Assembly: GCA_964653875.1 (NCBI GenBank)
Contig: CAZZGH010000001.1
Span: 564 to 62,472, forward strand
DNA: 61,909 nucleotides
Source: an uncultured Candidatus Saccharibacteria bacterium
GTDB lineage: Bacteria > Patescibacteriota > Minisyncoccia > 2-02-FULL-40-12 > GWA2-44-9
Reading direction: 5' to 3'
Shown here: positions 1,050-61,909 of the stretch, one piece after another
Position numbering within the stretch: position 1 is the stretch's first letter
Layout: each line of letters opens with the position of its first letter
The notes under the pieces: generated by a model
What the model was told of the DNA's origin: nothing
Databases searched by the model: none
What the model saw: the letters and a program-made list of their open reading frames with translations, nothing else
Program-made: the position numbers and the translations under genes

Positions 1050-2744
1050 ATGATCATACTGGGAACCTTGACCTATTCACACGACACTTCAGCGGCGATT
1101 ATTAAAGACGGCCGGTTGCTTTATGCTGCCGAAGAAGAAAGATTTAACAGAAAAAAACACACCACCGACTTTCCGCATAACGCAATCAGGGCCTGTCTTG
1201 ACTTTGCAAAAATCAAAATGAAAGATATTGATGTCATTTGTGTACCCACTGACCCGGTTAGTCATATCCGCCTTAGGTTTATACGGCATTGGTTTAATTA
1301 CTACCCGCAGGTCGCCCCAAGAATGCTTGAAGAGTTTAAGTGGATAAGCAGAATAATTGATATTGAAAAAGATATAAGAGAAAATTTAGACTTTACGGAA
1401 AAAATATTTTTCTGCCGCCATCATGTTGCTCACATGGCAAGCGCTTATTATCTTTCAGGGTTTTCTCACAGCGCACTATTGAGTATTGACGGGGTTGGTG
1501 AAATTGAAAGCTTAATGACAGGCCAAGCTAAAGATAATCTCATTCGGACATTTGAAAGAAATAATGTTGATTGGCCAAATTCTCTAGGGGTACTTTATAC
1601 GTGTATTACCGAGTGGTTAGGATTTAAACGCCACTGTGACGAGGGCAAGGTGATGGGTTTGGCTCCCTATGGCAACGTAGAGACCTATCAAGAGATTTTT
1701 GAAGACATGGTCACCCTTCTGCCAAACGGCATGTTTGCGTTTGATTTTAGCTATTTTGATTATCCGTTCATTCAAGGATCTACAATGTCAGCCAAGTTTA
1801 CCGAACTTTGCGGTCCACCACGAAAGCCAACCGAGGATATCACCCAAAGGCACCGAGATATTGCTGCTGCCGTTCAATATATAACCGAAAGAGTTATGCT
1901 TCATAGTGCCAACCACCTGTACCGACAAACTAAAGAAAAAAACATATGTTTAGCCGGCGGAGTTGCCTTAAATTGTGTTGCTAATGGAAAAATATTAACC
2001 GAAACGCCTTTTGAAAAAATATTTATCCAACCAGCAGCTAATGATGCCGGCATCGGATTAGGTGCAGCTCTTTATTACCATTATCTCAAAAACCCGCAAG
2101 GTGAACGACAAAAAATGATAAATGCTTATCTTGGAAATGGCTATTCCGATCAGGAGATTGAAAAACTTCTAGATAGGGCTGGGCTGAAGTATGAGAAAGT
2201 AGAAAATATTTTTCCAAGAGTGGCAAGTCTATTAGAACAACAAAAAATTGTCGCTTGGTTTAGTGGACGTTCAGAATTCGGACCTCGCGCTTTAGGAAAC
2301 CGCTCAATTCTTACCGCTCCCTTCCCCGCTGAAATGAAAGATGTCTTAAACTCAAGGGTTAAGCACCGTGAGAGTTTCAGGCCATTTGCTCCGGTCGTCT
2401 TAGAAGAACGTTGCGGCGAATATTTTGACAATACGCACGAATCTCCCTACATGCTCCTGACTTATGGCGTAAAAGAAGACAAAAGAAACAAAGTGCCGGC
2501 CATTACTCACATCGACGGAACAGCTAGAGTCCAAACAGTGAACAGAGAACAAAACAATGAACTTTATTGGCTAATTCATGAATTTGGAAAATTAACCGGC
2601 GTTCATGTTGTTTTGAATACATCATTCAATGTCATGGGCCAGCCAATCGTGAACACTCCGGATGAAGCTATCGACTGTTTCTTGGGAACAGATATCGACT
2701 ATCTTGTCCTAAACGCTAAATATCTTTTGTCTAAAAGATCATAA
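1050..2744 (+). CDS. carbamoyltransferase (NodU/CmcH/TobZ family)
   Basis: 564 aa. The N-terminus ILGTLTYSHDTSAAIIKDGRLLYAAEEERFNRKKH and the C-terminal ...THIDGTARVQTV...NTSFN are typical of Carbam_trans_N/C proteins. Confidence 0.85.
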   Translation: MIILGTLTYSHDTSAAIIKDGRLLYAAEEERFNRKKHTTDFPHNAIRACLDFAKIKMKDIDVICVPTDPVSHIRLRFIRHWFNYYPQVAPRMLEEFKWISRIIDIEKDIRENLDFTEKIFFCRHHVAHMASAYYLSGFSHSALLSIDGVGEIESLMTGQAKDNLIRTFERNNVDWPNSLGVLYTCITEWLGFKRHCDEGKVMGLAPYGNVETYQEIFEDMVTLLPNGMFAFDFSYFDYPFIQGSTMSAKFTELCGPPRKPTEDITQRHRDIAAAVQYITERVMLHSANHLYRQTKEKNICLAGGVALNCVANGKILTETPFEKIFIQPAANDAGIGLGAALYYHYLKNPQGERQKMINAYLGNGYSDQEIEKLLDRAGLKYEKVENIFPRVASLLEQQKIVAWFSGRSEFGPRALGNRSILTAPFPAEMKDVLNSRVKHRESFRPFAPVVLEERCGEYFDNTHESPYMLLTYGVKEDKRNKVPAITHIDGTARVQTVNREQNNELYWLIHEFGKLTGVHVVLNTSFNVMGQPIVNTPDEAIDCFLGTDIDYLVLNAKYLLSKRS

Positions 2745-2748
2745 CCTT

Positions 2749-2772
2749 AACTGCCCTTTTCGGCAGTTTTTT
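2749..2772 (+). terminator. rho-independent terminator
   Basis: CTGCC-cttttc-GGCAG followed by TTTTTT. Confidence 0.65.
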
Positions 2773-2808
2773 ATCCCTCACCATTCAGAAAGGTGAGGGA
2801 TTTTATTT
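2773..2808 (+). terminator. second tandem terminator hairpin
   Basis: 10-bp stem ATCCCTCACC/GGTGAGGGAT, 9-nt loop, T-rich tail. Confidence 0.6.
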
Positions 2809-2835
2809 GACTAGCACATAAAAATTTTGTATACA
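2807..2835 (+). promoter_or_regulatory. promoter: TTGACT, 17-nt spacer, TATACA
   Basis: -35 at 2807-2812. -10 at 2830-2835, or alternatively TACAAT at 2832-2837. Confidence 0.5.
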
Positions 2836-2869
2836 ATACGCAAAGAACCTTAATAACTAGGGAGGCTGA

Positions 2870-4054
2870 ATGAGCACCACAAGTCCTAAATATCCTCTGG
2901 CCGGTGACACAATTGACCATCAAGATATTGAAAATGTAATTACCTGGTTAAGAACTTCGCCAAGATTAACAATGGATGAAATGACTAAGCAGTATGAAAA
3001 TAAATGGACGGAATGGTTGGGAAGAAAGTTTGCTCTTTTCTGTAATTCCGGATCCTCGGCCAATCTTCTTATGTACTATGCCCTTCTTTGCTCCAGTAAA
3101 TTAATGAATAAAAAGGTTATTGTTCCAAGTGTAGGTTGGGTAACAACGATTGCTCCGGCTATTCAATTTGGTTTTGAAGCTATCATGTGCGAAGCAGATC
3201 CGGAAACATTCGGATTGGACCTGAACCACCTAGAAGAATTGCTTAAAAAGCACCATCCTGCCACGGTAATGCTTGTCCAAGTTCTTGGAATACCTCATAA
3301 AATGGATGAGGTTTTAGCCCTGAAAAATAAATACGGATTTATTCTATTGGAAGATGCTTGCGCTTCTGTGGGTTCAAGTTACAAAGACCAAAAGGTCGGA
3401 ACATTCGGAGATATGTCCAGTTTTTCTACTTATTACGGCCACCAGTCCCCGACCGTTGAGGGAGGACTTGTCTTTACTGACGACCAAGAGTTCCATAACA
3501 TTTTGGTAATGATCAGAAGCCATGGCTGGGGCCAGCATTTGGACTCCGAGACCTACAACAGAATCTTCAACAAGTACAATATTGATACCGCCCATCGGCC
3601 ATTTGCTTTCTTCTACCCGGGATTTAATGTCCGGCCCACTGATATACAAGCGTTCATCGGCTTAGGACAATTAGACAAGCTGGGGTGGACAATCAGGCGA
3701 AGGGCAGAAAATCATGAACTTTACCGACAGTTGCTAAGCAGCCATTTTTACACTCAAAATTACGACAAGAACTCCATGGTCTCAAGTATCCATTTCGCCA
3801 TCTTAGCCAAGGATTCAACCGAAAGAGACAAGATTGCCAATGCCCTGACGGAGAACAGCATAGAAACAAGATTATACTCCGCCGGCAATCTTGGCCTCCA
3901 TCCTTTCTGGTATGACAATTATGGCAAATTTACCGCACCCATGGCTACCAGAATTTATAATTGCGGACTTTTTCTTCCTAATAATCCGTCCCTTAATCAG
4001 GGGGATATAAAATTTATATCGGACGTAGTTTTAGCAAGTGTGGAGGCGAATTAA
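2870..4054 (+). CDS. PMP-dependent NDP-4-keto-6-deoxyhexose 3-dehydratase (ColD/E1 (RfbH/DdhC)-like, DegT fold)
   Basis: YPLAGDT..., SGSSANLL, VPSVGWVTT, LLEDACASVG and PGFNVRP match the ColD/E1 pattern. The active-site motif is FSTYYGHQSPTVEGG, with His where aminotransferases carry the Schiff-base Lys. Confidence 0.8.
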   Translation: MSTTSPKYPLAGDTIDHQDIENVITWLRTSPRLTMDEMTKQYENKWTEWLGRKFALFCNSGSSANLLMYYALLCSSKLMNKKVIVPSVGWVTTIAPAIQFGFEAIMCEADPETFGLDLNHLEELLKKHHPATVMLVQVLGIPHKMDEVLALKNKYGFILLEDACASVGSSYKDQKVGTFGDMSSFSTYYGHQSPTVEGGLVFTDDQEFHNILVMIRSHGWGQHLDSETYNRIFNKYNIDTAHRPFAFFYPGFNVRPTDIQAFIGLGQLDKLGWTIRRRAENHELYRQLLSSHFYTQNYDKNSMVSSIHFAILAKDSTERDKIANALTENSIETRLYSAGNLGLHPFWYDNYGKFTAPMATRIYNCGLFLPNNPSLNQGDIKFISDVVLASVEAN

Positions 4055-4076
4055 TTAACAAAAAAATTTATCTGAT

Positions 4077-4106
4077 TATCGGCCGTATCCTCGGTCGATT
4101 TTTATT
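4077..4106 (+). terminator. rho-independent terminator
   Basis: ATCGGCCG-tatcct-CGGTCGAT (one G-U pair), followed by TTTTATTT. Confidence 0.55.
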
Positions 4107-4113
4107 TCAACAA

Positions 4114-4142
4114 GTTGACAAAGCTCTTTTTATAACATATGT
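4114..4142 (+). promoter_or_regulatory. promoter: TTGACA, 17-nt spacer, TATGTT
   Basis: Consensus -35 at 4114-4119, 17-nt spacer. Confidence 0.5.
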
Positions 4143-4180
4143 TTTTAGACGATTGAACCTTTACAATTACAGAGGAAAAA

Positions 4181-6028
4181 ATGAAACAGAGAGTCAGCGA
4201 TTATATCCTTGATTTTTTGGCAGATCATGACATTAAAGAAGTGTTTGAGGTTTATGGAGCAGCTAATGCAAATCTCATCGATGCTTTTACCCGTACTGAA
4301 AGGATCCGATATATCGCTACGATGCATGAGCAGGCTGCAGGCTTCGCTGCCGAAGGGTATGCAAAAGTAAGTCACAAGCCGGGCGTAGTTATTGCCACAA
4401 GCGGTCCTGGTGCACAAAATTTGCTCACACCTATCGGTAACTGCTTTTACGACTCCGTCCCCTGTCTTTTTTTGGTAGGCCAGATCAAATCACAATTCAT
4501 ACGCCCTGACCCGTCCGTAAGACAGGTTGGTTTTCAGGAAACTCCCATTGTTGAAATTGTTTCCTCAATAACTAAATATGCCAAACAGGTCCGCAACGCT
4601 AAAGATATTAAGTATGAACTTGAAAAAGCATGGTTCCTCTGCCAAGAAGGCAGACCCGGACCAGTTCTGCTCGATATGCCGATTGATGTTCAAAAAGAAG
4701 AAATCGATCTTAATGAGCTTCATGGTTTTGATCCGGAAATAAAAAAAACCGCATATGACACGCATTTGATTAATAGCCAAATAGATAACTTCCTCGAAGA
4801 CATAAGAAAAAGCAAGCGGCCAGTTATATTGGTTGGCGGAGGAGTGTGGATAGCCAACGCCGTCCAAGAACTTCTGGCAGCAGCAAAGGAACTAAAAATT
4901 CCCTGCCTGCCAACATTTAACGCTCTCGATGTGGTAACATCCGATTTCGAGTTCTATGGCGGACGGATCGGCACAAACGGTAGCCGAGCCGGCAATTTTG
5001 CTCTCCAAAATTCAGATCTTCTCCTTGCTATTGGTTGCCGTATTTCAGGAAGAATCACCGGAGGCAACCTTCATTCTTTTGCCAGAGAAGCAAAAAAATA
5101 TGTAGTAGATGTTGATCCGGCACTCCTTCAAAGAAAACTTCAGCAGATTCCGTTTGACGTTAACATCCGCTGTGATGCCAAAATATTTTTACAAACCTTG
5201 CTTGTAAAATTGCAAAGAGAATATTTTGCCTTAAGATACCGAAATAGTGATCACCCTCACAGCTGGTGGATGGATAAGGTTAATAAATGGAAACAAATGT
5301 ACCATCCGACCAAAGAAGAGCTCTTTTGCCGAAAAACAGATACGGTCAACCCATTTGTTTTCATGAAAAAGTTATCTGATCAGATGAAACCAGATGACAT
5401 TTTTGTTTACGACTGCGGAGGTAACGTTATTATTACGAATGCGATATTTGAAACCAAGCAGGGCCAGAGATTTATCACCAACAACGGCAATTCGCCAATG
5501 GGTTTTTCTTTTGCCGGAGCTATGGGGGCATGGTTTGCTTCTGATAAGAAAAAACAAAATGTGGTCTGCGTTATTGGTGACGGCGGATTTAACATGAATA
5601 TTCAGGAAATCCAAACTTGTATTAATTATGGTATCGGAATAAAAGTTTTTATTCTGAATAACCACATCTACGGCATTACCAAGTCTTTCCAGATAACTAA
5701 TTTCGGAGGCCGAATGGAAGCTTGTGGTCCAAAGGGCTATAGTCCGCCAGATTTTAGAAAGGTAATTGGACTCGGTTATGAAGCACCGCTGGAAGTAGTA
5801 GACAACGACGAAGAGGTTGAAGAAAAGATAAAAAAGGTCCTTAATTCAGACGGACTTATTTTCTGCGATATAAACTGCCACGAATGGCATTCGTATGGCC
5901 CTAAAATCATCGGCTGGAACACTCCGATTGAAGATATGTTTCCCTACCTGCCGAGAGATGAATTTAAAGAACAAATGATGATTGACCTTGTGCCCGGCTG
6001 GGAAAACCCGTTCACTTCAGTTGAATAA
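4181..6028 (+). CDS. thiamine-diphosphate-dependent enzyme, acetolactate-synthase-large-subunit/YerE-like
   Basis: 615 aa. N-terminal TPP_enzyme_N pattern (HEQAAGFAAEGYAK...SGPGAQNL) and ThDP-binding motif GDGGFNMNIQE...NN. Confidence 0.8.
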   Translation: MKQRVSDYILDFLADHDIKEVFEVYGAANANLIDAFTRTERIRYIATMHEQAAGFAAEGYAKVSHKPGVVIATSGPGAQNLLTPIGNCFYDSVPCLFLVGQIKSQFIRPDPSVRQVGFQETPIVEIVSSITKYAKQVRNAKDIKYELEKAWFLCQEGRPGPVLLDMPIDVQKEEIDLNELHGFDPEIKKTAYDTHLINSQIDNFLEDIRKSKRPVILVGGGVWIANAVQELLAAAKELKIPCLPTFNALDVVTSDFEFYGGRIGTNGSRAGNFALQNSDLLLAIGCRISGRITGGNLHSFAREAKKYVVDVDPALLQRKLQQIPFDVNIRCDAKIFLQTLLVKLQREYFALRYRNSDHPHSWWMDKVNKWKQMYHPTKEELFCRKTDTVNPFVFMKKLSDQMKPDDIFVYDCGGNVIITNAIFETKQGQRFITNNGNSPMGFSFAGAMGAWFASDKKKQNVVCVIGDGGFNMNIQEIQTCINYGIGIKVFILNNHIYGITKSFQITNFGGRMEACGPKGYSPPDFRKVIGLGYEAPLEVVDNDEEVEEKIKKVLNSDGLIFCDINCHEWHSYGPKIIGWNTPIEDMFPYLPRDEFKEQMMIDLVPGWENPFTSVE

Positions 6029-6032
6029 AATT

Positions 6033-6054
6033 AAACCCCGATTCGGGGTTTTTA
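6033..6054 (+). terminator. rho-independent terminator
   Basis: AAACCCCG-att-CGGGGTTT followed by a T-run. Confidence 0.65.
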
Positions 6055-6057
6055 TTA

Positions 6058-6086
6058 TTGACTAAGACTAACACAATAAGTATATT
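6058..6086 (+). promoter_or_regulatory. promoter: TTGACT, 17-nt spacer, TATATT
   Basis: -35 at 6058-6063 and -10 at 6081-6086. Confidence 0.5.
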
Positions 6087-6127
6087 GAGCCTAATCTGTT
6101 ATTTAAAACAAGGATCCAGAAGATTCC

Positions 6128-8200
6128 ATGAGACGAAAAGTAACGGTCGGTTTGTGCCAAATAAATGCCGGCTTTTCCGGCGCCAATTATCTTCCATATT
6201 CAGCAGGAATCTTGGAGGTATTTGCTCAAAAGAATATTCCGAATATCGATGACTTTCATTTTCTGCCCTATATATTTACTCGCGAATCAGTAGATTCGGC
6301 TGTGAAAAAACTTTTACCCGCAGATGTTGCGTGTTTTAGCCTTTATGTTTGGAATGACCAATTAGCCCGCAGAATAGCCAAAGAACTGAAAAAAATAAAA
6401 CCTGAAATCATTATCGTTGTCGGCGGTCCTCATGTGCCAGATAAATACAAATCTCATATTCAGAATAAACAAGCCACGCTTAAATGGGAAAATCCGAAGA
6501 AAACCGGTCAAGATATAATTGACCCCGCACTAGAAAGAACACAAACCTATTTAAGGGAAAATAATTATATTGACATCGCTGTCCATGGTGAAGGAGAAAG
6601 GCCTTTTTCAATTCTGCTCCAAAATCTATACGGCGACTGGAAAGAAATTCCTTCAATAAGTTTTTTAGATCGAGATGGCTTTATTGTCCAGACCGAAAGA
6701 ATCCCACGCTTAAAAGATCTTGACGAGGTACCTTCTCCATATCTTGAAGGAACTTTTGATTCTATTATCAAAGCATATCCGGACATGGAATGGATTACGG
6801 TTTGGGAGACAAATCGCGGATGTCCGTTTTCCTGTACATTTTGCGACTGGGGTTCAGCTATAGCGTCCAAAATAAATAAGTGGAAAATTGAAAGAGTTTA
6901 TCAAGAAATAGATTGGTTTGCAAAACATAACGTCCAGTTTATTTTTCTCGCTGACGCAAACTTCGGGATTTTGCCTCGTGATATAGAAATAGCCAAATAC
7001 TGCGCCGAAGTGAAAAGAAAGACCGGCCGTCCCAATACGATCACGGTTTCGAATACCAAAAATGCCACCGATCGGTCTTATCAGGTTCAAAAAATATTTG
7101 CCGACGCCGGCCTTGCTGCCGGAGCATCGCTATCAATGCAATCTTTAGATCCTCAAACCCTGAAAGATATAAAAAGAGATAATATCAACCTTGACTCATA
7201 CAGGGAAATTCAACGGCGAATGAAGGAGGATGGTATTTCAGCTTTTACTGATATTGTTCTTGGCTTGCCCGGAGAAACATATGACTCGTTCGCTAATGGT
7301 ATCGATGAACTTATTAGAAGTGGTCTTCATGATCGGGTTCTCTTCTATAATCTTACGATCCTGCCCAATGCCGAGATGGCCGACCCAAGTTATCAAAAAT
7401 TACATGGAATGGAGACAGTAAAAATGAGAAGTGTAAACATTCACGGCAGCAGAAAAGAAATAGAAGGAGACGTTCCTGAAGTGCAGGAGGTGGTAATCGC
7501 GACCAAAACAATGCCCAAAGAGGACTGGGTCCGGGTCTGTGTTTTTAGATGGACTTCAGCATTTCTACACTTTGATAAAATACTTCAGATTCCCCTTGTT
7601 CTCACGCATGAAATTACCGGAGCAAGTTATCGCGAATTGATAGAACTGTTTTCTGAAGACAATATTAAGAAAGCTGAAGAATTTCCCATACTAAACAGGG
7701 TGAGACAATTCTTCGTTGCTAAAGCGCAATCAATTCAGCGCGGAGAAGAAGAATTTTGTCATTCGCCAAAATATATTGATGTACGATGGCCATCTGATGA
7801 ATACATGCTCATTGATTTAGCCATTAACGGCGATCTTCCAGCATTCTATCAAGAAGCATACAGAACCTTGGAATCATTATCGGTTAAATATGGCAAAAGT
7901 GAGAATTTAGACGCAATAAAAGAAGCAGTGCAGCTTAACCAGGATATGTTAAAATTGCCATTCCGTGCCGATAGTCAGGATCTGTTGCTTTCATATAACA
8001 TTTGGGAATTCTATCACGCAGCAATTCGAGGTAAACCCATTCCCTTAGAAAAACACCGTGCTGTCATCACTATAGATTATGAGAGCGAGAAATGGAATTC
8101 ATGGGAAGATTGGTGCCGACAAGTTGTCTGGTACGGCAGTAAGCGCAGTGCTTATCTTTATGGAAACAAAGCTGTCGTTCAAATTGCGGGACATTTCTAA
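6128..8200 (+). CDS. cobalamin (B12)-binding radical SAM enzyme, long form (690 aa), paralog A
   Basis: N-terminal B12-binding Rossmann-like region (FSLYVWN...IIIVVGGPHVPD), the CX3CX2C cluster motif GCPFSCTFCDW, and a ~300-aa C-terminal extension ending AYLYGNK..QIAGHF. Confidence 0.8.
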   Translation: MRRKVTVGLCQINAGFSGANYLPYSAGILEVFAQKNIPNIDDFHFLPYIFTRESVDSAVKKLLPADVACFSLYVWNDQLARRIAKELKKIKPEIIIVVGGPHVPDKYKSHIQNKQATLKWENPKKTGQDIIDPALERTQTYLRENNYIDIAVHGEGERPFSILLQNLYGDWKEIPSISFLDRDGFIVQTERIPRLKDLDEVPSPYLEGTFDSIIKAYPDMEWITVWETNRGCPFSCTFCDWGSAIASKINKWKIERVYQEIDWFAKHNVQFIFLADANFGILPRDIEIAKYCAEVKRKTGRPNTITVSNTKNATDRSYQVQKIFADAGLAAGASLSMQSLDPQTLKDIKRDNINLDSYREIQRRMKEDGISAFTDIVLGLPGETYDSFANGIDELIRSGLHDRVLFYNLTILPNAEMADPSYQKLHGMETVKMRSVNIHGSRKEIEGDVPEVQEVVIATKTMPKEDWVRVCVFRWTSAFLHFDKILQIPLVLTHEITGASYRELIELFSEDNIKKAEEFPILNRVRQFFVAKAQSIQRGEEEFCHSPKYIDVRWPSDEYMLIDLAINGDLPAFYQEAYRTLESLSVKYGKSENLDAIKEAVQLNQDMLKLPFRADSQDLLLSYNIWEFYHAAIRGKPIPLEKHRAVITIDYESEKWNSWEDWCRQVVWYGSKRSAYLYGNKAVVQIAGHF

Positions 8201-8222
8201 AGACGCTTAAGCGTCTTTTTTG
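8199..8222 (+). terminator. rho-independent terminator
   Basis: AGACGC-ttaa-GCGTCT followed by TTTTTT. Confidence 0.7.
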
Positions 8223-8233
8223 TTCCCTTTTAG

Positions 8234-8262
8234 TTGACCAAAGAAAAATTTAACCGTATAGT
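8234..8262 (+). promoter_or_regulatory. promoter: TTGACC, 17-nt spacer, TATAGT
   Basis: -35 at 8234-8239 and -10 at 8257-8262. Confidence 0.5.
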
Positions 8263-8295
8263 TTCCAAATTGCGTTCATTAAAAATAAGGGAAAA

Positions 8296-10037: not shown

Positions 10038-10050
10038 CGGGGCTTTTTTG
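10028..10050 (+). terminator. rho-independent terminator overlapping the stop codon
   Basis: AGCCCC-ctaac-GGGGCT followed by TTTTT. Confidence 0.6.
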
Positions 10051-10079
10051 TTGACAGAAACCGCAAAAAAATACATAAT
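10051..10079 (+). promoter_or_regulatory. promoter: TTGACA, 17-nt spacer, CATAAT
   Basis: Lies immediately after the terminator. Consensus -35. Confidence 0.55.
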
Positions 10080-10114
10080 ACACGCCAAGAACTTTGAAAT
10101 TGGGGTAAAAAAAT

Positions 10115-11913: not shown

Positions 11914-11930
11914 AGCACTAAAATAAATTA

Positions 11931-11960
11931 AAAACCTCCAATTACTATGGGAGGTTTTTT
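11931..11960 (+). terminator. rho-independent terminator
   Basis: AAACCTCC...GGAGGTTT hairpin followed by TTTTTT. Confidence 0.6.
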
Positions 11961-11968
11961 GATTATTA

Positions 11969-52192: not shown

Positions 52193-52211
52193 AAAATACC
52201 AATGGAATCAA

Positions 52212-52276
52212 CCCCGTAGTAGATTTTCCGATTGCGACAAAGTCGCTCAAGAAACCTCGGAAAATTCACTACGGGG
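52212..52276. promoter_or_regulatory. nested inverted repeat in a divergent intergenic region
   Basis: 19-nt arms at 52212-52230 and 52258-52276 (17 Watson-Crick pairs, 1 G-U, 1 mismatch) enclose an inner hairpin GCGAC-aaa-GTCGC (52234-52246). The right arm overlaps the -35 region of TTCACT-18-TATAAT (52265-52294). Confidence 0.7.
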
Positions 52277-52298
52277 TCAAACCCAACATATAATCACC

Positions 52299-55797: not shown

Positions 55798-57141
55798 TCA
55801 ATTAGTTCTTGTGCTGTTTGGAGTTACCCTATATATCATTCCAGCAGAATCATCTGACACATAAAGTGCTCCGTCCGAGCCGAATTTCAAATCAACCGGC
55901 CGGCCTGATATTTTGCCATCTGCCCCCAGCCATCCCGATATAAAATCCTCTGGCTTTTGAGATAGAACCTTGCCGTTGACATCTAAATCGTACCTTACTA
56001 TTTTGTACCCGACAGGAACACTCGAATTCCAAGACCCATGAAACGCCACCAAAAGGTCCCCTGCCCATTCTTTTGGCCATCCATTGCCGGATGGAATAAA
56101 CGCCAAGCCCAAAGGAGCTGAATGGGCTTGCACTTGTATGATTGACGGCTCTGTCTGTGTGCAATCGGAAGACAGATCCTTCCTTTCTATTTTTTCGGGA
56201 TTAAATGTTTTATCTCTCACTTGGTTGCCGTAACAAAATGGCCAACCATATTTTTTGGCAGTGAACTTATCTTCCGATCCTGCAACTTTAATAATGTTTA
56301 TTTCGTCCGGCGGCAGATTATCCCCCAAATTATCGCGCCCCATTTCGGTTGCCCAAATTTCTTTGGTTTTCGGATGAAAAGTAAAAAATACGGAGTTTCT
56401 TAATCCACCGGCGAATTCGGCCGTAAATGTTTTTCCCTCAGGGTCAGTTTCTAACATTGCCGCCCTTTTCCAGGTAGTAGTTTCAACACAAACGTCGCAA
56501 GACGAACCGACGCTTATATATAACTTGACTTCAGAAAGAGTGGTATCGCCTTTTTTCCCCGGAAGTAGGGAAGTTTTTCTAAAATTAGGGCCGAATAATA
56601 TCGTTCTTGTGAAATGTCTCCCATCAGCGGGAAAATTGGTAATATTCTGACCTTTATCGGACATTACTGTTCCACTTTTAATATCATATGCATAACGAGC
56701 CACCTGCTGTGTCTCCGCTACATACAAATAAATAGTTTCCCCGGACTTATAAAATGCCAAGCCATGGGGTTTGTTCAATCCGCTTAGTATGGTCGTTTTT
56801 GCTTCAGCGATGCCGTCCTTATCTTTATCTTTTAAGAAAACCACTTTTCCGGATTTAGTTTCACTGACAAACGTTCTCCCCAACGAATCAAAAGTTATAA
56901 CTCTCGGATCTTCCAGATCTTTCGCAAAAGTATTAATTTTAAACCCCTCCGGAAGTTTAAGGTATGAAAGCGATGAGTCGCTGGTTTGGGATACGATGGG
57001 TTTTTTAAACTGAGGAAGATCGTATCCAGCCAATTTTTTTAATAAGTAAAAATCGGTAAAAAATAAGTAAGCCAAAAAGACCAAAATTACAATAAAAAAA
57101 GCCTTTAACTTAAAACTAGAAGTTAAAAATTTAAAATTCAT
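55798..57141 (-). CDS. membrane-anchored PQQ-dependent sugar (glucose/sorbosone) dehydrogenase-like beta-propeller
   Basis: N-terminal TM segment, PHGLAF, and GRDNLGDNLPPDEINII, which are typical of the GSDH family. Confidence 0.75.
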   Translation of the reverse strand: MNFKFLTSSFKLKAFFIVILVFLAYLFFTDFYLLKKLAGYDLPQFKKPIVSQTSDSSLSYLKLPEGFKINTFAKDLEDPRVITFDSLGRTFVSETKSGKVVFLKDKDKDGIAEAKTTILSGLNKPHGLAFYKSGETIYLYVAETQQVARYAYDIKSGTVMSDKGQNITNFPADGRHFTRTILFGPNFRKTSLLPGKKGDTTLSEVKLYISVGSSCDVCVETTTWKRAAMLETDPEGKTFTAEFAGGLRNSVFFTFHPKTKEIWATEMGRDNLGDNLPPDEINIIKVAGSEDKFTAKKYGWPFCYGNQVRDKTFNPEKIERKDLSSDCTQTEPSIIQVQAHSAPLGLAFIPSGNGWPKEWAGDLLVAFHGSWNSSVPVGYKIVRYDLDVNGKVLSQKPEDFISGWLGADGKISGRPVDLKFGSDGALYVSDDSAGMIYRVTPNSTRTN

Positions 57142-58705
57142 ATACCAAAAATGTGTACCCTATTCTATCAATGGGTTGATATAAAGATAACCAGTCTAAA
57201 TTTTTATCCTTTGATTTTTGACTTAACTCTCTTAGCCTGACCAGGAAATGGATATTCACGGCATATTTTCCAGACGGATTTAAAAACGATTTTTCTACAG
57301 AAGGTATAATGTTTTTAATCCCGTAATATCCCGGATCAAAAAATATATTAAAATCAGAATTTACTACCTTCATTCCGGGGTGGTTTTTTTGATATTCCGC
57401 AAGACGTTTCAAATCATGCTTCCACTCCAAGTTTGAGTCATCCAAATATTTATAACCGTTAACCGGTCCCCCAATAAATTCATTGAAATAAGCCAGATAA
57501 TCAGGGTGGATACTCACGGCAGAAAAAATATACCACAACCCTAAAACAATGACAACAACCGAAATTGACACAGATTTGACGCCGTCCCATTTTATTCTAA
57601 TCACCCGAACCAATCCTCCCGCAAAAAGAATTAGAAAGGGGAAAGCCGGCAATAAATAACGAATACTAAGATTATGAGCTTTTAAGCTTGTGACAATCGA
57701 GAAAAAAATCATAGGCAGAAATATAAACAACTTGTCACGATTATTGATATGTAACTTCCTATAGAAAACAAGGGCAGCTGTAAAAGCAATAAGCGCGGGA
57801 ATGGGGGTCTTTATCAAAAATGCCTCCAAAAAATAATACCACCAGCCGTTTTTTGAAAACTGGCCGTTCAAATAGAAATTGTAAGAACTATTTGCATCTG
57901 CATAAATTGTATTCACACCCCTTAAGTAAAACCCCAGGTCTGTCGGCAGAAGGTAAGAAAAATATACAACAATAGCGGCCGGAAAAATTATTATGGCTGT
58001 TATTTTGACAGATCGGCGCATGATTTGATAAAAATCATTTTGCTTAGATTTAATGTTAATAAAAATTAAAAATAAAATTACCGGTAGAAACAGGACAGCC
58101 GAGAATTTAGAGCTTAATGCCAAACCAAGAAACAGTCCGGAATAAATTAAATATCTGTTAAAATTGGTTCTAACAAACTTCCATAAATAATAGAGAGCGG
58201 CAAACGAGAAAGAAGATAAAGCCAAATCGGTGGTTACAAATTGAGCGTGGGCAATAACATTCGGCATAAAGGCGTAAAGAAACAAGGACAGAGCACCTGC
58301 TTGGGGACTGAATATTTCGGAAGTCCATCGATAAACATAAAACCCCAATAAAACAGACAAGAGCATAACGGGCAATCTCCCCCAAAACAGCAATTTGTCA
58401 ACGTCATTAGAAAGCAGAAATTTTTTGCCGAATATCCACTCATTTTTAAAAGGACCAGATAAATCAGGGTCTTGGCTGTCAAACTTTAAATCCATAAACA
58501 GCAAAGGAAAGGAAGAGATTAATTTAACAAAAGGCGGGTGTTGAGGATTTAAAGTAATTTGTCCCATTTTCCAATAAGAGTAGCCACTTGGAAGATGGGT
58601 TATTTCGTCGTTTGCTGGACTAAAATTTTGTGCGCTAAAAAACGGCAGTAGAAATGTAATCGCCAACAAAATTGATACTATAATCTTTATTTTCACGCCA
58701 TTCAT
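57131..58705 (-). CDS. GT-C-fold glycosyltransferase (PMT_2/ArnT, GT39-like)
   Basis: NDEITHLPSGYSYW...NPQHPPFVKL first-loop motif. Polytopic, 524 aa. Confidence 0.75.
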   Translation of the reverse strand: MNGVKIKIIVSILLAITFLLPFFSAQNFSPANDEITHLPSGYSYWKMGQITLNPQHPPFVKLISSFPLLFMDLKFDSQDPDLSGPFKNEWIFGKKFLLSNDVDKLLFWGRLPVMLLSVLLGFYVYRWTSEIFSPQAGALSLFLYAFMPNVIAHAQFVTTDLALSSFSFAALYYLWKFVRTNFNRYLIYSGLFLGLALSSKFSAVLFLPVILFLIFINIKSKQNDFYQIMRRSVKITAIIIFPAAIVVYFSYLLPTDLGFYLRGVNTIYADANSSYNFYLNGQFSKNGWWYYFLEAFLIKTPIPALIAFTAALVFYRKLHINNRDKLFIFLPMIFFSIVTSLKAHNLSIRYLLPAFPFLILFAGGLVRVIRIKWDGVKSVSISVVVIVLGLWYIFSAVSIHPDYLAYFNEFIGGPVNGYKYLDDSNLEWKHDLKRLAEYQKNHPGMKVVNSDFNIFFDPGYYGIKNIIPSVEKSFLNPSGKYAVNIHFLVRLRELSQKSKDKNLDWLSLYQPIDRIGYTFLVYEF

Positions 58706-60516
58706 AGGTCTCTAATTTTTTTCTCCGCTATTTTTATCATCTCTTCTATCCCCGAGGCTTTATTTCCGAAAGTCTGCGCATTTTTCAGGTAAACTAATGC
58801 CTGCTCGTAATCTTTTTTAACAAAATAGGCAGTCCCGACTACCGCACTCACATCGGGGTGGCTGAAATTGGAACTAAAGTATTTATTTATCATATCTAAC
58901 GCTTTATCCGGTTTATTCAAGGCAATTTGTATGTAAGAGTATCTGACCACGTATTCAGTCGTGGAATAAAAATTAATAACCGTGAGAAAGTTTTCCCCGG
59001 CTTCCTGGAGCCGTCCCTGATTTAGATATAGCTCCGCTAAATTTATGGACGTATCTGTTGCATTTGGATTCAGTTCCAAAGATTTTTTAAATTTTTCTTC
59101 AGCTAAGACATAGTTCCCTTCATGATCGGCAACAACTCCAAATAGGTTTTGCAGATGGGAATTGTTCTCATATACTCTTCGGGCTATTTCAAGTTGTTCT
59201 TTTGCCAAGTCCCACTCATCCGCTCTTATATACACGCCGGCTAGTGCCGTTCTGGTTATTAAGCTATTCGGCGACTCTTTAACTGTCGCGTTAAATAATG
59301 TTCTACTGTCATGCCAGTCCTTATTTCTAATAAAAGTTCTTACTCCATAGAAAACCACAAGAAAAACCAATAAAGAGAAGCCGACAATTTTATAAAACCT
59401 CCTCTTGTTTAAAAATTTATCTATAACCAAGGCCGAAACAACCGCAAATCCGAGAGAGGGAAAATACATAAGCCGCTCCCCCATTATTGTCCCAATCGGA
59501 ACCATAAGATTCGATATCATCAAATATGGAAATAAAAACATGGCAGCCGCGAAACTGAAACCAATACGAGTTTTACATAAAATCAAAACAACAAGGCCGG
59601 CCAATAAAATTAAGCCCGTGATTGACGGCCACGAAGTAAATATGTTTTTAACGACAGGAATAGCATTGTAAGAATAATCCGCGGACAAATGAACGGGCCA
59701 AATAAGTTTTCCGGCATACAAAACAAGCACCTTTAGCGCCGTAAAAATTCTTTCCGGCAAAGAGACAAATATCAGTATATTCGAGACGATAGTTGTATTA
59801 ATTTCCCCGGCAAAATACCGGCCAAGAGCCATATATCTCAAAAATCCATATAAGGCGAGAGGGGCAATAAAGAATAGGTTATCAGTTACGGCTTTCCACC
59901 AATTTTTTTTAGAAAACAGTATGTCTATATAGAAAACAATCGGCAGAACCATTAGAGCTACCTCTTTGCTCATCATAGCAAAGAGGAAAGCCACCGCGGC
60001 TAATATCTTGTCATTCTTTGAAAGTAGATAAATCGTTGCCAGAGACCAAAAGAAAGCCAATAATTCTGCCCTACCCACAATTGAAGTTACGGCTTCGGTG
60101 TGGATTGGGTGAAGCAGGAATAAAAGAGAAGAAATATAAGCGACAGGCCGGGATTTTAAAAACCAAATAACCAGCCAAAAAACAAGAAACGAGTTCAGGG
60201 CGTGAATAAGAATATTTACCGCATGAAAACCGACAGGGGAAGAGCCAAAAATATTATGATTTAAAGAATACGTGGCCATCGTAAACGGACGATAAAGACC
60301 TGATTTGGGGGTATTTTGATGATAAGGAGAAACAAACAAATTAAAAAAATTACCGGGATCTCTTAGGTCGCCCCTGTTTTGAACCACCGTTACATCATCA
60401 AAAACAAACTCGCCGGAAATACCATTCCCGAAAACCAAAAAAGACAAAATAACCGAAATTAAAAAAACCAAAAACATCTCATGTCTTTTTTGAAAATTGA
60501 TAAATTTAAAATTCAT
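58702..60516 (-). CDS. TMTC-like GT-C O-glycosyltransferase (DUF1736-type) with C-terminal TPR repeats
   Basis: FVFDDVTVV and LYRPFTMATYSLNHNIFGSSPVGFHAVNILIHALNS match the TMTC/PMT2 loop pattern. The last ~200 aa are TPR. Confidence 0.75.
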   Translation of the reverse strand: MNFKFINFQKRHEMFLVFLISVILSFLVFGNGISGEFVFDDVTVVQNRGDLRDPGNFFNLFVSPYHQNTPKSGLYRPFTMATYSLNHNIFGSSPVGFHAVNILIHALNSFLVFWLVIWFLKSRPVAYISSLLFLLHPIHTEAVTSIVGRAELLAFFWSLATIYLLSKNDKILAAVAFLFAMMSKEVALMVLPIVFYIDILFSKKNWWKAVTDNLFFIAPLALYGFLRYMALGRYFAGEINTTIVSNILIFVSLPERIFTALKVLVLYAGKLIWPVHLSADYSYNAIPVVKNIFTSWPSITGLILLAGLVVLILCKTRIGFSFAAAMFLFPYLMISNLMVPIGTIMGERLMYFPSLGFAVVSALVIDKFLNKRRFYKIVGFSLLVFLVVFYGVRTFIRNKDWHDSRTLFNATVKESPNSLITRTALAGVYIRADEWDLAKEQLEIARRVYENNSHLQNLFGVVADHEGNYVLAEEKFKKSLELNPNATDTSINLAELYLNQGRLQEAGENFLTVINFYSTTEYVVRYSYIQIALNKPDKALDMINKYFSSNFSHPDVSAVVGTAYFVKKDYEQALVYLKNAQTFGNKASGIEEMIKIAEKKIRDL

Positions 60517-60543
60517 CGAAAATTTTAAATCGAAAATTAAAAA

Positions 60544-61909
60544 TTATTTCCTAATCTGTTCGATAAGATTCCTCATCAACTCGCCAGTTTGAGGATCCAG
60601 TTCGGCATATTTTAATCCTTCTTGCAAATCTTTCAATGCCTGCTTTTTATTATTTAGAGCAACATAAACTAGCGCCGAGTTATAATAAACACGGGGATTA
60701 TTCGAGAGAAGGATTTTAAGCTTCTCTATATTCTCAATGGCTTTGGCCAAATTGCCTTGCTGGGCATAAATAACGGAAAGATTTTGATAAGGATAGTAAA
60801 AATTAGGATTTATTTCTATTGCTTTTTCGTATAATTTAATGGCTCCATAGATATCTCCTCTGGATTGCAAAATAGTTCCTAGATTAAAATGGGGTTCTGC
60901 AAATATATCTTTTTGAGAGGCGGCTATCTTATAATATTTCTCGGCATTTCCCATGTCATTCATGTTGTAATAAATATTCCCTACATTATTATTTATCCTG
61001 GAACTGTCCGGTTCATATTTTAGGATATCAAGATAAAAAGCAAGCTGGTTGCCCCACAGAAGATTGCGTTGAATAGACTGATAAGCAAAGAATGAGAGAT
61101 ATGCAACCAATGCAGCGATTACCAAGGTTCGACAGAGTTCCCAAGGAGTGGGATTCCCACTCCGAGAACCTTGAATCTTCAAAAAGGTCGAACCTTTAAA
61201 ATCCAAAAGTTTCACAAGATAAAAAGAAACTATGAGCCAAAAACCGACCATCGGCAAATAGAGCCAGTGTTCATATATCAATGCATTTATAGGAGTGATG
61301 CCGGAAACAGGACCAAGGGGAACAAAAAACAAAGCCACGCCTAAAAACCATACTCGATATCTTGATATTTCGAAATTTCTAAACAAGACACCGTTGACCC
61401 TTTCTTTTTTGTATAAATGCCTAAGCCATGCCAGCAGAGTAACCAATGCGACTCCGACTATCCAAACCGGCCACTGAAACAGCGAGGTATAGACAATGGC
61501 GCTTCGTTCCATATGAAGCCCGGCGGGAATTATCAAAAGTTTTAGATATTCCCAAAGTATAGGCAGAAAGGTAAATACTCTGACATATAGATTTTCAGAA
61601 TAAATATTGGGTTCAGCGTAAAAATTAAGAGTATTCTGAAAATTTAAAACCGTAAGCCGCAAGATGCCGTAGGAAATAATTACCGTAAAATACGGCCAAG
61701 TTTTTATGATACCCCGTTTGATGGATTTCAAAAATCGTTCTTTTGAAACAGTAGAGACATAAAAAGCGAGAGCTAAAAATGGAAAGATTATGGCAGTTTC
61801 CCGGCTTAAAAGAGCAAATATCAGAAAAACACAAGAAAGCACTTTTAACGACATTGAATGTCGTTGTGGATAACTCTCTCTAACGACATTCAATGTCGTT
61901 AATTCTGAT
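60544..61909 (-). CDS. membrane protein with C-terminal TPR repeats (TMTC-like paralog), 5' end probably outside the window
   Basis: The reading frame stays open to the window edge (the ORF-track start at 61893 is TTG). TM region followed by TPR (NLGTILQSRGDIYGAIKLYEKAIEINP). Confidence 0.65.
   Translation of the reverse strand, partial: SELTTLNVVRESYPQRHSMSLKVLSCVFLIFALLSRETAIIFPFLALAFYVSTVSKERFLKSIKRGIIKTWPYFTVIISYGILRLTVLNFQNTLNFYAEPNIYSENLYVRVFTFLPILWEYLKLLIIPAGLHMERSAIVYTSLFQWPVWIVGVALVTLLAWLRHLYKKERVNGVLFRNFEISRYRVWFLGVALFFVPLGPVSGITPINALIYEHWLYLPMVGFWLIVSFYLVKLLDFKGSTFLKIQGSRSGNPTPWELCRTLVIAALVAYLSFFAYQSIQRNLLWGNQLAFYLDILKYEPDSSRINNNVGNIYYNMNDMGNAEKYYKIAASQKDIFAEPHFNLGTILQSRGDIYGAIKLYEKAIEINPNFYYPYQNLSVIYAQQGNLAKAIENIEKLKILLSNNPRVYYNSALVYVALNNKKQALKDLQEGLKYAELDPQTGELMRNLIEQIRK
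61845..61900. repeat. two inverted copies of the 21-bp near-palindrome TTAACGACATTGAATGTCGTT flanking GTGGATAACTCTCTC
   Basis: Copies at 61845-61865 and 61881-61900. They differ only at the central base. TGTGGATAA (61865-61873) is a consensus DnaA box. Confidence 0.85.

Follow-up and report, generated by a model that had tools for sequence, protein, structure and literature searches.

The S-layer O-oligosaccharyltransferases (O-OTases) WsaB and WsfB contain a Wzy_C domain, WsfB and PglL bear C-terminal tetratricopeptide repeats (TPR), and the clusters concerned use ABC export (PMC2943079). In streptococci, GtrB/PgtC2 and the Pgf system O-glycosylate Ser/Thr-rich extracytoplasmic protein regions (PMC12041528). 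NaxD, a member of the YdjC family, deacetylates undecaprenyl-phosphate-GalNAc before a GT-C-type transfer (PMC11279074). These are the systems with which I compare here an island of about 60 kb, rich in glycosyltransferases (GTs), that fills most of a stretch of 61,909 nucleotides (hereafter the window) of contig CAZZGH010000001.1 (assembly GCA_964653875.1) and is attributed below to ultra-small bacteria, the Patescibacteria, also called the candidate phyla radiation (CPR). The envelope of these organisms is essentially uncharacterised. They are described as having many glycosyltransferases, no lipopolysaccharide (LPS) and an envelope of unclear structure, and Parcubacteria are reported to lack lipid A genes, so that no LPS is expected in them (PMC5220378); gmd, rmd and further genes for O-antigen sugars are found on phages of Patescibacteria (PMC12911398). 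In the literature on CPR, only general remarks on glycosyltransferases and phage-borne O-antigen sugar genes were found, and no description of this type of locus.

Here, I argue that the island draws on machinery of known kinds, combined with unusual richness, and embodies no new principle. With moderate confidence, I regard it as the main envelope-glycosylation locus of its lineage, in which an en-bloc route and a monosaccharide route would operate in parallel. On the first route, at the cytoplasmic face, soluble GT4 and GT-A enzymes would use a polyprenyl-diphosphate carrier to build up an oligo- or polysaccharide, once a phosphoglycosyltransferase (PGT) encoded elsewhere has initiated it; the donors, supplied by the island, would be deoxy, amino, branched, methylated and carbamoylated sugars derived from GDP-Man and UDP-GlcNAc; an ABC half-transporter of the MsbA/PglK/HepA type would export the lipid-linked glycan, and a Wzy_C enzyme with an outward TPR domain would transfer it en bloc to an acceptor outside the membrane. 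On the second, two GT2 enzymes would make polyprenyl-monophosphate sugars, one of which a YdjC enzyme would then deacetylate, and five enzymes of the GT-C fold (PMT-like, TMTC-like bearing TPR, and members of two lineage-specific families) would use such sugars outside the membrane, adding them singly to proteins or to the glycan of the first route. The acceptors would most likely be secreted Ser/Thr-rich proteins, for example a conserved trio encoded inside the island.

The 49 main open reading frames (ORFs) of the window were scanned against Pfam and NCBIfam, negatives being judged at E<=1e-3, and the loci of relatives (labelled L001-L041, with L006 being the Yanofskybacteria contig MGKK01000012.1 and L041 belonging to GCA_004196315.1) were compared with all window proteins in a tblastn matrix. 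Gene identities, folds, catalytic motifs, synteny and taxon are reported as observed. The window is nearly the entire source contig of 62,472 bp, and gene absences hold for the window only. Genes from 1050 to 16459 lie on the plus strand and those from 16490 onwards on the minus strand, save for three marked as plus.

Inventory and gene order of the island

Eleven GT-B, three GT-A-like and five GT-C-fold glycosyltransferases, assigned from Pfam/NCBIfam matches, homologues and fold, make up about 20 of about 50 genes in the window, on a stretch that I take to be 5-10% of a typical genome of about 1 Mb. One published Parcubacterium genome has 20 glycosyltransferases in total (PMC5220378), and the island thus carries about one genome's worth, a density far beyond chance. 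An earlier note, made from the letters of the window, had counted 11 GT-B, two to three GT-A and four GT-C enzymes: the first count is reproduced by the scan of the 49 ORFs, the second becomes two GT2 and one TIGR04440 glycosyltransferase, and the third has to be raised to five, one of them cut by the window end. Its O-antigen-ligase-like protein (one, Wzy_C plus TPR), MsbA/PglK-type ABC exporter, GDP-mannose branch (Gmd, Fcl-like, ColD/E1-like and Gmd/Rmd-like enzymes), UDP-GlcNAc branch (an FnlA/CapE-like dehydratase, with an RmlD-like reductase), four cobalamin radical-SAM enzymes (all B12-binding), carbamoyltransferase (NodU-type) and sugar kinase (GHMP) were all found, while the at least four methyltransferases it had announced shrink to three conventional S-adenosylmethionine (SAM) methyltransferases (19800-20786, 31171-31926 and 35997-36563).

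All named homologues of three island proteins belong to metagenome-assembled genomes (MAGs) of Patescibacteria, Parcubacteria or Candidatus Yanofskybacteria, groundwater being among the samples, and the window belongs on this evidence to Patescibacteria, close to Yanofskybacteria. On contig MGKK01000012.1 (173 kb), the genes at 8.3-10.9 and 16.5-45.4 kb have orthologues that are arranged alike and are 51-93% identical, except for the methyltransferase/RmlD-like/FnlA-like trio at 31.2-33.9 kb, which is not shared. Six other MAG loci contain most or all of the genes at 44-61.9 kb, likewise in the same order (TPR GT-C, TMTC-like, PMT, propeller, Wzy_C+TPR, divergent GT4, GT4, GT2, GT4, GT4, secreted trio, GT4) and at 50-85% identity, and a single Yanofskybacteria contig of 306 kb bears homologues of three anchor genes, those for the Wzy_C+TPR enzyme and for the GT-C proteins of 550 and 662 amino acids (aa). 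Ordered orthologues for the stretch at 44-61.9 kb were located in L010-L016 and L019. Because gene order is kept in related MAGs and the anchor genes share one contig, the chance juxtaposition of unlinked sub-blocks for which the earlier note had allowed fails as an explanation, and the island is a coherent unit for most of its length.

The exception is the left block (carbamoyltransferase, ColD-like enzyme, thiamine diphosphate (ThDP) enzyme, two KedN5-like radical-SAM enzymes, aldo/keto reductase (AKR), Gmd-like enzyme and TIGR04440 GT), which has no orthologous unit in any relative locus or in a metagenome scan; a search of genome contigs with the carbamoyltransferase as query found no relative. 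Its sub-cassettes recur in metagenome loci, for example as radical-SAM enzyme, AKR, short-chain dehydrogenase/reductase (SDR), Gmd-like gene and GHMP kinase. The island consists of a conserved backbone and exchangeable sugar-tailoring cassettes, and, if it is the glycosylation locus proposed here, this arrangement would yield strain-specific surface chemistry.

The same unevenness could mean that several independent pathways lie together because CPR genomes concentrate envelope genes, and that no single machine exists: a conserved module for O-glycosylation of proteins (44-62 kb), a GT2/YdjC/GT-C decoration module (25-34 kb) and an exchangeable nucleotide-sugar cassette (1-16 kb). Besides the contrast between a right module that is 50-85% identical across many MAGs and a left block found as a unit in none of the loci searched, L016 lacks the PMT gene, one TMTC-like gene and the secreted trio, the decoration cassette has other neighbours in L004 and L041, and the left part, at about 41-43% G+C, stands above the rest with its content of about 37-39%. 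I consider this explanation unlikely, for in Yanofskybacteria all blocks follow one another as here for at least 35 kb, the Gmd, Fcl and ColD-like genes are spread over the blocks and must feed shared transferases, and there is a single exporter and a single ligase-type enzyme for the 11 GT-B enzymes.

Export, transfer and acceptors

The enzyme at the centre of the putative en-bloc route (53492-55765) joins a WaaL/PglL-type membrane domain (Wzy_C, E 6.6e-15) to C-terminal TPRs, and its gene is the most conserved of the island, with 771 homologues, the top 120 at 55-78% identity. The alignment has an invariant FDRAHN-x9-G-xx-G, with H348, which fits the motif of WaaL-type ligases, H[NSQ]x9Gxx[GTY]. 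The membrane part of its AlphaFold2 model (predicted local distance difference test, pLDDT, 84.3) matches WaaL 7tpg with a TM-score of 0.60 on the target; in profile and fold searches of the PDB with the protein, TPR matches dominate and WaaL first appears at rank 50. Because four hydrophobic helices follow the catalytic loop (three do so in the WaaL structure) and K/R-rich loops lie on alternate sides, the TPR domain would be outside, on the side of the catalytic loop. The protein is a candidate en-bloc glycan ligase or O-oligosaccharyltransferase.

The only ABC protein of the window (20791-22620) is a half-transporter in which transmembrane (ABC_membrane) and nucleotide-binding (ABC_tran) domains are fused, not a Wzm/Wzt (ABC-2) type; it scores 309 bits with HepA, 297 with MsbA and 225 with PglK, all below cut-off, so that exporters of polysaccharide, lipid A and lipid-linked oligosaccharides are its best matches; it also resembles NdvA and has an 82% orthologue in L006. 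In distant relatives, the Wzy_C+TPR enzyme keeps other company: in L040 the orthologue (56% identical) is flanked by two Polysacc_synt (Wzx) genes and a Bac_transf PGT of 453 aa, and in L018 (51% identical) it adjoins Wzm and a Wzt with a Wzt_C domain. Because of these neighbours, the family appears tied to lipid-diphosphate-linked donors and would work with ordinary glycans of that kind and with interchangeable export modules; its export partners are Wzx, Wzm/Wzt or, in this lineage, the MsbA/PglK/HepA-like half-transporter.

None of the 49 ORFs matches Bac_transf, Glycos_transf_4, Polysacc_synt, Wzz or NTP_transferase in Pfam, the PGT and two Wzx proteins of L040 and the Wzm of L018 find nothing in the window by tblastn or phmmer, and for a small flippase of the GtrA/ArnE/F type there is neither a Pfam match nor an unassigned small polytopic ORF in the island. 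The absence of an initiator, Wzx, Wzz and nucleotidyltransferase from the window, asserted by the earlier note, is thereby borne out by both Pfam and relative-derived queries. It is real for the window as regards PGT and Wzx, and is not a property of the system: taking the lack of initiation genes as the defining oddity does not hold, given the PGT plus Wzx or Wzm/Wzt beside the orthologues of distant relatives. In close relatives, the genes past the last TPR gene encode unknown proteins of 205 aa and about 1,240 aa, a ComEA-like protein and an FKBP, and no PGT. In ABC-dependent O-polysaccharide (O-PS)/O-antigen systems, WecA is usually encoded outside the cluster, and the simplest reading places the genes for the PGT and the nucleotidyltransferases in other parts of the genome; for that reason the word complete, applied to the machine by the earlier note, was an overstatement for a window with neither an initiating transferase nor a nucleotidyltransferase and a contig that ends just beyond it.

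For the monosaccharide route, the GT2 at 28519-29505 is of the polyprenyl-phosphate PgfS/ArnC/GtrB type, aligning over its whole length with PgfS (261 bits) and ArnC (164 bits), neither score reaching its cut-off, and has C-terminal transmembrane helices at residues 223-290. A GT-C protein of 550 aa (29535-31187, about 12-14 transmembrane segments) is encoded beside it, an adjacency kept in L001, L004, L008 and L041. The GT2 of 247 aa at 50245-50988, closest to AglJ, ArnC, PgfS, PpgS and Dol-P-hexose transferases, is a candidate for a second polyprenyl-phosphate sugar synthase. The putative deacetylase at 27727-28482 is a YdjC-family carbohydrate enzyme of the NaxD/HpnK kind (YdjC E 2.9e-48; HpnK 117 bits, below cut-off), its gene being kept beside the GT2 in L001, L004 and L008. 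A whole cassette, [FnlA-like/RmlD-like]-methyltransferase-GT-C-GT2-YdjC(-GT4-B12 radical-SAM), recurs in L001, L004 and L041, and L008 has GT-C, GT2 and YdjC in the same order without the methyltransferase. In L041 (16652-19039), genes for a CotH plus beta-helix protein and for VTC/DUF4956 follow the GT-C cassette. An HpnI/HpnJ/HpnK hopanoid module was considered for these genes and rejected on scores (HpnK 117 against a cut-off of 233 bits, HpnJ 91 against 578) and on context, the GT2 matching PgfS and ArnC and not the Hpn glycosyltransferases, and no squalene-hopene cyclase being encoded in the window.

Sequence and profile searches of PDB and Pfam with the 550-aa and 662-aa proteins were empty, and their GT-C nature is therefore taken from the annotation of homologues and from predicted fold, respectively. 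The former is GT39/PMT_2-like: many of its 168 homologues contain PF13231 or PF02366 (PMT_2/PMT) and are named GT39, and the family has invariant Y28, H29, D31, E32 and W35 after the first transmembrane segment (TM1). The latter (17483-19471), which ends in a soluble domain of about 150 aa, has no NCBIfam match; none of its 32 homologues has a Pfam domain, and the few with names are from Patescibacteria MAGs. Its AlphaFold2 model, built from the homologue alignment (pLDDT 87.5, predicted template modelling score 0.87), matches GT-C structures only in Foldseek, such as Pmt4, AglB, Stt3, ArnT, DPY19 and ALG9, and D36 after TM1 is near-invariant; on this model, it is predicted to be a GT-C-fold transferase. 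Both families are thus GT-C families that Pfam does not model directly. The remaining three are a PMT_2 enzyme (57131-58705; E 4.6e-15, 71-73% orthologues), a TMTC-like enzyme with C-terminal TPRs (58702-60516; TMTC_DUF1736 26.9 bits against a cut-off of 27) and a second TMTC-like enzyme with TPRs (60544-61909), the 5' end of which is cut by the window edge, with about 190 aa missing. The frame of the last gene is open to the last base, its homologues have 573-637 aa, and the L010 one (637 aa) contains 'FWDDENW'; TMTC_DUF1736 scores E 0.5 in 60544-61893; TPRs are present, and the loop-1 motif WDDE is seen in the L010 homologue. As listed, its ORF has 449 aa from a TTG start. An acidic motif stands just after TM1 in all five GT-Cs (TDNE, QDE, NDE, FDD and WDDE), NDE belonging to 57131-58705, FDD to 58702-60516 and WDDE to the full-length homologue of the cut gene.

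As to acceptors, the island encodes between its transferases three exported or membrane-anchored proteins (45485-47873; 344, 137 and 320 aa) that have no Pfam match and hold the same position in L010, L011, L012, L014 and L019. Ser and Thr account for 22% of residues in two of the three, against a window mean of 11%; the 344-aa protein has a Pro/Thr linker (PTPTPT, 45959-46069), and the 320-aa protein (46911-47873) has a signal peptide and two repeats of about 80 aa, its gene containing a DNA repeat (47284-47419 and 47518-47653). The trio are candidate acceptors or scaffold. In the family of the 320-aa protein, STIGTNMSTTGTF is invariant just after the signal peptide, a pair of Cys residues is found at the C terminus, and relatives have 1-3 copies of the repeat. 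The ORFs 45485-46519 and 46479-46892 overlap by 41 nt (46479-46519); the overlap vanishes once the second Met (MKQIKNKF...) of the downstream gene is taken as its start, and the listed start of that ORF is probably too far upstream. A membrane-anchored beta-propeller of the GSDH/TrAA12 type (55798-57141) completes this region, its 68-78% orthologues always lying between the GT-C genes and the Wzy_C gene. The TMTC/PMT-like GT-Cs, a WsfB-like Wzy_C enzyme with a presumed outward TPR and the Ser/Thr-rich secreted proteins make glycosylation of proteins, the trio included, plausible. No lpx or kds genes are present in the window or in the loci of relatives, and, because Parcubacteria are reported to be without lipid A, a protein or another non-LPS acceptor is expected. 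The ABC-dependent or carrier-lipid delivery envisaged by the earlier note can stand to this extent, the parts for both being present. In L011 (559-4308) and L012 (2399-6130), a protein of about 1,240-1,250 aa without Pfam domain is encoded just past the TPR GT-C genes; it is possibly a large surface (S-layer-like) protein and target of glycosylation, and the contig of the window ends before the corresponding position.

The same enzymes might instead serve a non-protein acceptor and make a lipoglycan or a cell-wall-linked polysaccharide, comparable to lipomannan/lipoarabinomannan (LM/LAM) or to a secondary cell-wall polymer: the GT4s would start from a membrane lipid or a polyprenyl carrier, their product would be flipped by the ABC protein, the GT-Cs would extend and decorate it outside, and the Wzy_C+TPR enzyme would join it to lipid or peptidoglycan. 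Several GT4s weakly match diacylglycerol glucosyltransferases, the lipoteichoic acid (LTA) anchor enzymes IagA/BgsA and GlcN-PG synthase, MsbA-like exporters move glycolipids, multiple GT-Cs fed by polyprenyl-phosphate sugars are a hallmark of actinobacterial LM/LAM assembly, Emb and AftD are among the fold matches of the 662-aa model, and LPG_synthase_TM genes lie nearby in L004 and L040. Yet the GT4 matches to glycolipid families are far below cut-offs, the window has neither an LCP ligase nor genes for the synthesis of a lipid anchor, Ser/Thr-rich secreted proteins are kept inside the island, and TMTC/PMT-like GT-Cs and Wzy_C+TPR enzymes are best documented with protein acceptors (PMC2943079, PMC12041528). 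I therefore give this alternative a real but clearly minor share of the probability.

Several points weigh against the proposed two-route locus with protein acceptors. With no initiating PGT, nucleotidyltransferase, GtrA-type flippase or LCP ligase in the window, neither route is complete on present evidence. The exporter is not of the Wzm/Wzt type of the characterised ABC-dependent O-PS/S-layer systems, and any substrate named for it is putative; the topology of the TPR domain derives from helix counting and the positive-inside rule; and the secreted trio could be scaffold or export parts, not substrates. All equivalog-level NCBIfam scores except that of Gmd fall below curated cut-offs. Lastly, no glycan or glycoprotein is known to have been characterised from any CPR organism, and for this reason every donor and acceptor proposed here is inferred, and so is what the radical-SAM enzymes do and in which order the steps follow.

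A bolder version of the same idea, which I hold to be doubtful, is that the backbone (Wzy_C+TPR, two TMTC-like TPR GT-Cs, the PMT-like GT-C, the two further GT-C families, to date seen in Patescibacteria-type MAGs only, the propeller and the secreted trio) is a protein O-glycosylation machine specific to Patescibacteria, which would place strain-specific glycans on the few surface proteins of the cell, with sugars remodelled by cobalamin radical-SAM enzymes. Within it, remodelling could take place partly on the lipid carrier, by the GT2/YdjC/B12-radical-SAM trio, in parallel to HpnI/K/J. If this were true, carrier-borne remodelling could lead to C-methylated or ring-contracted (carbocyclic) amino sugars, a chemistry that is not known from any surface glycan.

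Sugar supply and tailoring

The left block opens with a NodU/CmcH-type O-carbamoyltransferase (1050-2744; Carbam_trans_N and Carbam_trans_C E 1e-64 and 1e-71, NodU 195 bits), which has no orthologue in the loci of relatives, followed by a ColD/E1(RfbH)-like sugar 3-dehydratase dependent on pyridoxal phosphate (PLP) (2870-4054; DegT family, best NCBIfam match RfbH). In the latter, His replaces the catalytic PLP-binding Lys, as the alignment of its SSFSTYYGH with the SFSVPK of the DegT enzyme at 34897-36000 shows. The ThDP enzyme next to it (4181-6028; TPP_enzyme_N, M and C) is acetolactate-synthase (ALS)-like (395 bits, the cut-off of 538 not being reached) and, compared as it was without a YerE model, is a candidate YerE-type two-carbon branching enzyme; a 39%-identical copy adjoins the GT2/GT-C cassette in L041. 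Then come a B12 radical-SAM enzyme of the KedN5-like C-methyltransferase family (6128-8200; Pfam, NF033712 259 bits, below cut-off), which recurs with AKR, SDR and Gmd-like gene in metagenome loci; a split transketolase (Pfam; N subunit 8296-9114, C subunit 9111-10037) with 80-85% orthologues in L006, which has three such pairs; an SDR (10115-10915; Pfam, 72% identical to its L006 counterpart); an AKR (10912-11913; Pfam) that co-occurs with the radical-SAM enzyme in L020 and L030; and a second KedN5-like B12 radical-SAM enzyme (12026-14179; Pfam/NCBIfam, DNA repeat D2), a paralogue of the first, a 72% homologue of which adjoins a TIGR04440 GT in L027. The block closes with a Gmd/Rmd-like short-chain dehydratase/reductase (14301-15275; GDP_Man_Dehyd E 3.5e-62, gmd model 125 bits, below cut-off) and the third GT-A-like enzyme, a TIGR04440 (TIGR00180-family) glycosyltransferase (15374-16459; NCBIfam 150 bits, above the cut-off of 70). 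On the opposite strand, a GHMP sugar kinase with N and C domains (16490-17482), like HddA (heptose-7-P kinase; 170 bits, below cut-off) and fucokinase, has a 55% orthologue in L006, with a SIS_2 gene nearby. In L006, 14652-21977 holds three consecutive split transketolase/E1-like pairs, two SDRs, the SIS_2 gene and a dTDP-sugar isomerase beside the island backbone, an unusual number of ThDP enzymes for a sugar locus.

Taken together, Gmd, the ColD/E1-type and ALS-like ThDP enzymes and the reductases would fit the synthesis of a yersiniose-type branched 3,6-dideoxyhexose from a GDP-sugar, the FnlA-like dehydratase and RmlD-like reductase that of a UDP-6-deoxy-L-HexNAc, while the HddA-like kinase, the split transketolase and the SIS_2 gene of Yanofskybacteria suggest a heptose branch, which would be an alternative role for the transketolase. 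Branching at C2 of a 3,6-dideoxyhexose, as in the yersiniose type, and O-carbamoylation are known elsewhere, and the claim of the earlier note that the chemistry was undescribed falls in these respects; it keeps its force for the B12 radical-SAM steps, which are not known to have a characterised precedent in a surface glycan. The part of the four enzymes in a surface-sugar pathway is presumptive.

Enzymes of these kinds (KedN5-like radical-SAM, NodU/CmcH-type, ThDP, AKR, SDR and aminotransferase-fold) are also typical of antibiotic sugar tailoring, of which GenK and TobZ-type enzymes are examples, and the block 1050-16459 might make a secreted small-molecule glycoside or pseudo-oligosaccharide, such as an aminoglycoside-like natural product, and not a surface sugar. 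This is very improbable: the block contains neither a scaffold-forming enzyme nor a dedicated exporter and ends in a glycosyltransferase, its ColD/E1-type and Gmd-like enzymes need the GDP-sugar supply of the island, and in L041 a YerE-like ThDP enzyme accompanies the GT2/GT-C cassette as well.

The Gmd enzyme (36942-39188), a GDP-mannose 4,6-dehydratase with 504 bits in two stretches for TIGR01472 (above the cut-off of 415), is split by an insertion of 389 aa (37452-38618) between ...LFNHE and SPRRGE.... Because the insertion ends in ...CYVHN|S, has a LAGLIDADG-like motif (LMGMMVGDG) and weakly matches an intein-bearing DnaB model, it is interpreted as an intein with a homing-endonuclease domain; its first residue is apparently Thr, not Cys/Ser. 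The Yanofskybacteria orthologue (356 aa, 93% identical) is without the insert.

Further sugar genes occupy the middle of the island. A NanM-like putative sugar O-methyltransferase (19800-20786; TIGR04371 45.6 bits, above the cut-off of 44) has a 75% orthologue adjoining the ABC gene in L006, and a GDP-L-fucose synthase-like (Fcl-like) epimerase/reductase (22728-23684; NF047922 275 bits, the cut-off of 500 not being reached) has 66-68% orthologues in L006, L017 and L018. Beyond it lie a GT4 (23764-24972, plus strand; Pfam, 70-73% orthologues in L001 and L006), a B12 radical-SAM enzyme (25018-26604) with weak matches to the Sden_1168, HpnJ and ApyD families, whose orthologues in L001 (77%) and L041 (61%) adjoin the GT-C cassette, and a GT4 (26665-27726; Pfam, 63-65% orthologues). 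Upstream of the 550-aa GT-C gene, the SAM methyltransferase (31171-31926), RmlD-like reductase (31907-32803) and FnlA/CapE/PseB-like UDP-GlcNAc 4,6-dehydratase (32805-33860), all assigned by Pfam/NCBIfam, form a trio also seen in L001 (78-85% identity) and L004. A Glyco_trans_1_2 GT of GT-B type (33884-34900), the DegT aminotransferase, with its catalytic Lys kept (34897-36000), a methyltransferase (35997-36563) and a WbuC-like cupin (36560-36940) have 74-85% orthologues in the same order in L008; that the last two are a split methyltransferase was rejected, as the cupin has an 85% orthologue of the same length. A GT4 (39237-40481), the fourth B12 radical-SAM enzyme (40520-42025, plus strand) and three GT4s (42061-43230, 43227-44333 and 44330-45388), all from Pfam, are matched in L008 and L016 by orthologues that are arranged alike and 58-88% identical. 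In the right module, the GT4s at 47929-49044, 49046-50218 and 50975-52192 (Pfam) and the divergent GT4 at 52176-53495 (plus strand; Pfam/NCBIfam) lie among genes (47929-53495) whose orthologues in L010-L016 and L019 are 51-85% identical and keep the order.

The only sizeable intergenic gap, just upstream of the 662-aa GT-C gene, contains an ORF for a helix-turn-helix protein of 81 aa (19478-19723), a candidate local regulator; an 81-aa PF12728 HTH_17 gene has the same position in L006. A promoter scan of the window did no better than on shuffles. The ColD-like gene and the second radical-SAM gene are each immediately preceded by one copy of a direct repeat of 35 nt (74%; 2828-2862 and 11990-12024), which they may share as an upstream element. 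ORF 169-792 (207 aa, without family), which lies directly upstream of the island where the G+C content is 46%, is bracketed by a direct repeat of 70 nt (1-70 and 926-995, 91% identical) with the internal palindromes CCGAGCTTACTCGG and TGTGTACACA; for repeat and ORF, duplication of a regulatory region or a mobile cassette of small size could be the explanation. In relatives, a gene of 205-208 aa adjoins the TPR gene, and a circular contig was considered on that account and rejected, ORF 169-792 not being homologous to that gene.

Comparison with characterised systems

With yersiniose-type pathways, the island shares Gmd, a ColD/E1-type enzyme in which His stands in place of Lys, a ThDP enzyme resembling ALS, and reductases, but the nucleotide would be GDP and not CDP, and the B12 radical-SAM enzymes, transketolase and carbamoyltransferase are without counterpart there. 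Its TMTC-like enzymes (58702-60516 and 60544-61909) have, as eukaryotic TMTC1-4 and PMT do, a GT-C domain and an acidic loop-1 motif, with C-terminal TPRs and a putative DUF1736-like segment, and 57131-58705 shares the PMT_2 domain with PMT; they differ in the DUF1736 score (26.9 against a cut-off of 27), in the lack of a MIR domain and in the bacterial host.

Along the same line, GtrB-PgtC2, PgfS-PgfM, ArnC-ArnT and, in Francisella, FlmF2-NaxD-FlmK pair, as the island does, an ArnC/PgfS-like GT2 having C-terminal transmembrane helices with a GT-C enzyme, and in the last of them NaxD, like the YdjC deacetylase here, stands between synthesis and transfer (PMC11279074). The acceptors of the streptococcal three-component systems are Ser/Thr-rich extracytoplasmic protein regions (PMC12041528), whereas that of the island is putative. 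Here, moreover, no gene for a GtrA/ArnEF-type flippase was found in the window, five GT-Cs take the place of one or two, the cassette retains a methyltransferase as well as a B12 radical-SAM enzyme, and the phylum is without lipid A.

The Neisseria pgl system has in PglL a Wzy_C enzyme with a conserved His motif, as here, and the L040 orthologue, with its Bac_transf PGT and Wzx-type flippases, reproduces the pgl layout; in the island, an ABC exporter replaces the flippase, the PGT is not in the locus, and the capacity for glycan building is much larger. The slg clusters of Geobacillus stearothermophilus and Paenibacillus alvei (WsaB/WsfB) share with the island a monoderm-type envelope, nucleotide-sugar genes, many cytoplasmic GTs, one or more methyltransferases, ABC export, an O-OTase with a Wzy_C domain, C-terminal TPRs (in WsfB and in PglL) and a lipid-linked monosaccharide for side-branching (PMC2943079). 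These clusters have their own initiator of the PHPT family (WsaP/WsfP) and Wzm/Wzt, whereas the island has no initiator and a half-transporter of the MsbA/PglK type; they contain no GT-C battery and no radical-SAM enzymes, and span 16-25 kb against about 60 kb.

To sum up, the locus overturns no principle of glycan assembly, and by analogy each of its mechanisms would have a characterised precedent, namely en-bloc transfer of the slg/PglL kind, the logic of ABC export, the GT2 plus GT-C pair and NaxD-type deacetylation on the carrier. A backbone with exchangeable cassettes is the pattern expected of a surface layer engaged in host attachment and phage recognition, and the island supplies candidates for its study: a WsfB/PglL-like transferase whose TPR domain is predicted to be external, two families of GT-C enzymes to which no Pfam model is devoted, proteins that are likely to be glycosylated, and four B12 radical-SAM enzymes in a surface-sugar context. 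New in comparison with the described systems are the phylum, the combination in one locus of about 60 kb, the five GT-Cs, the three TPR-bearing membrane transferases, the MsbA-type exporter and the four radical-SAM enzymes.

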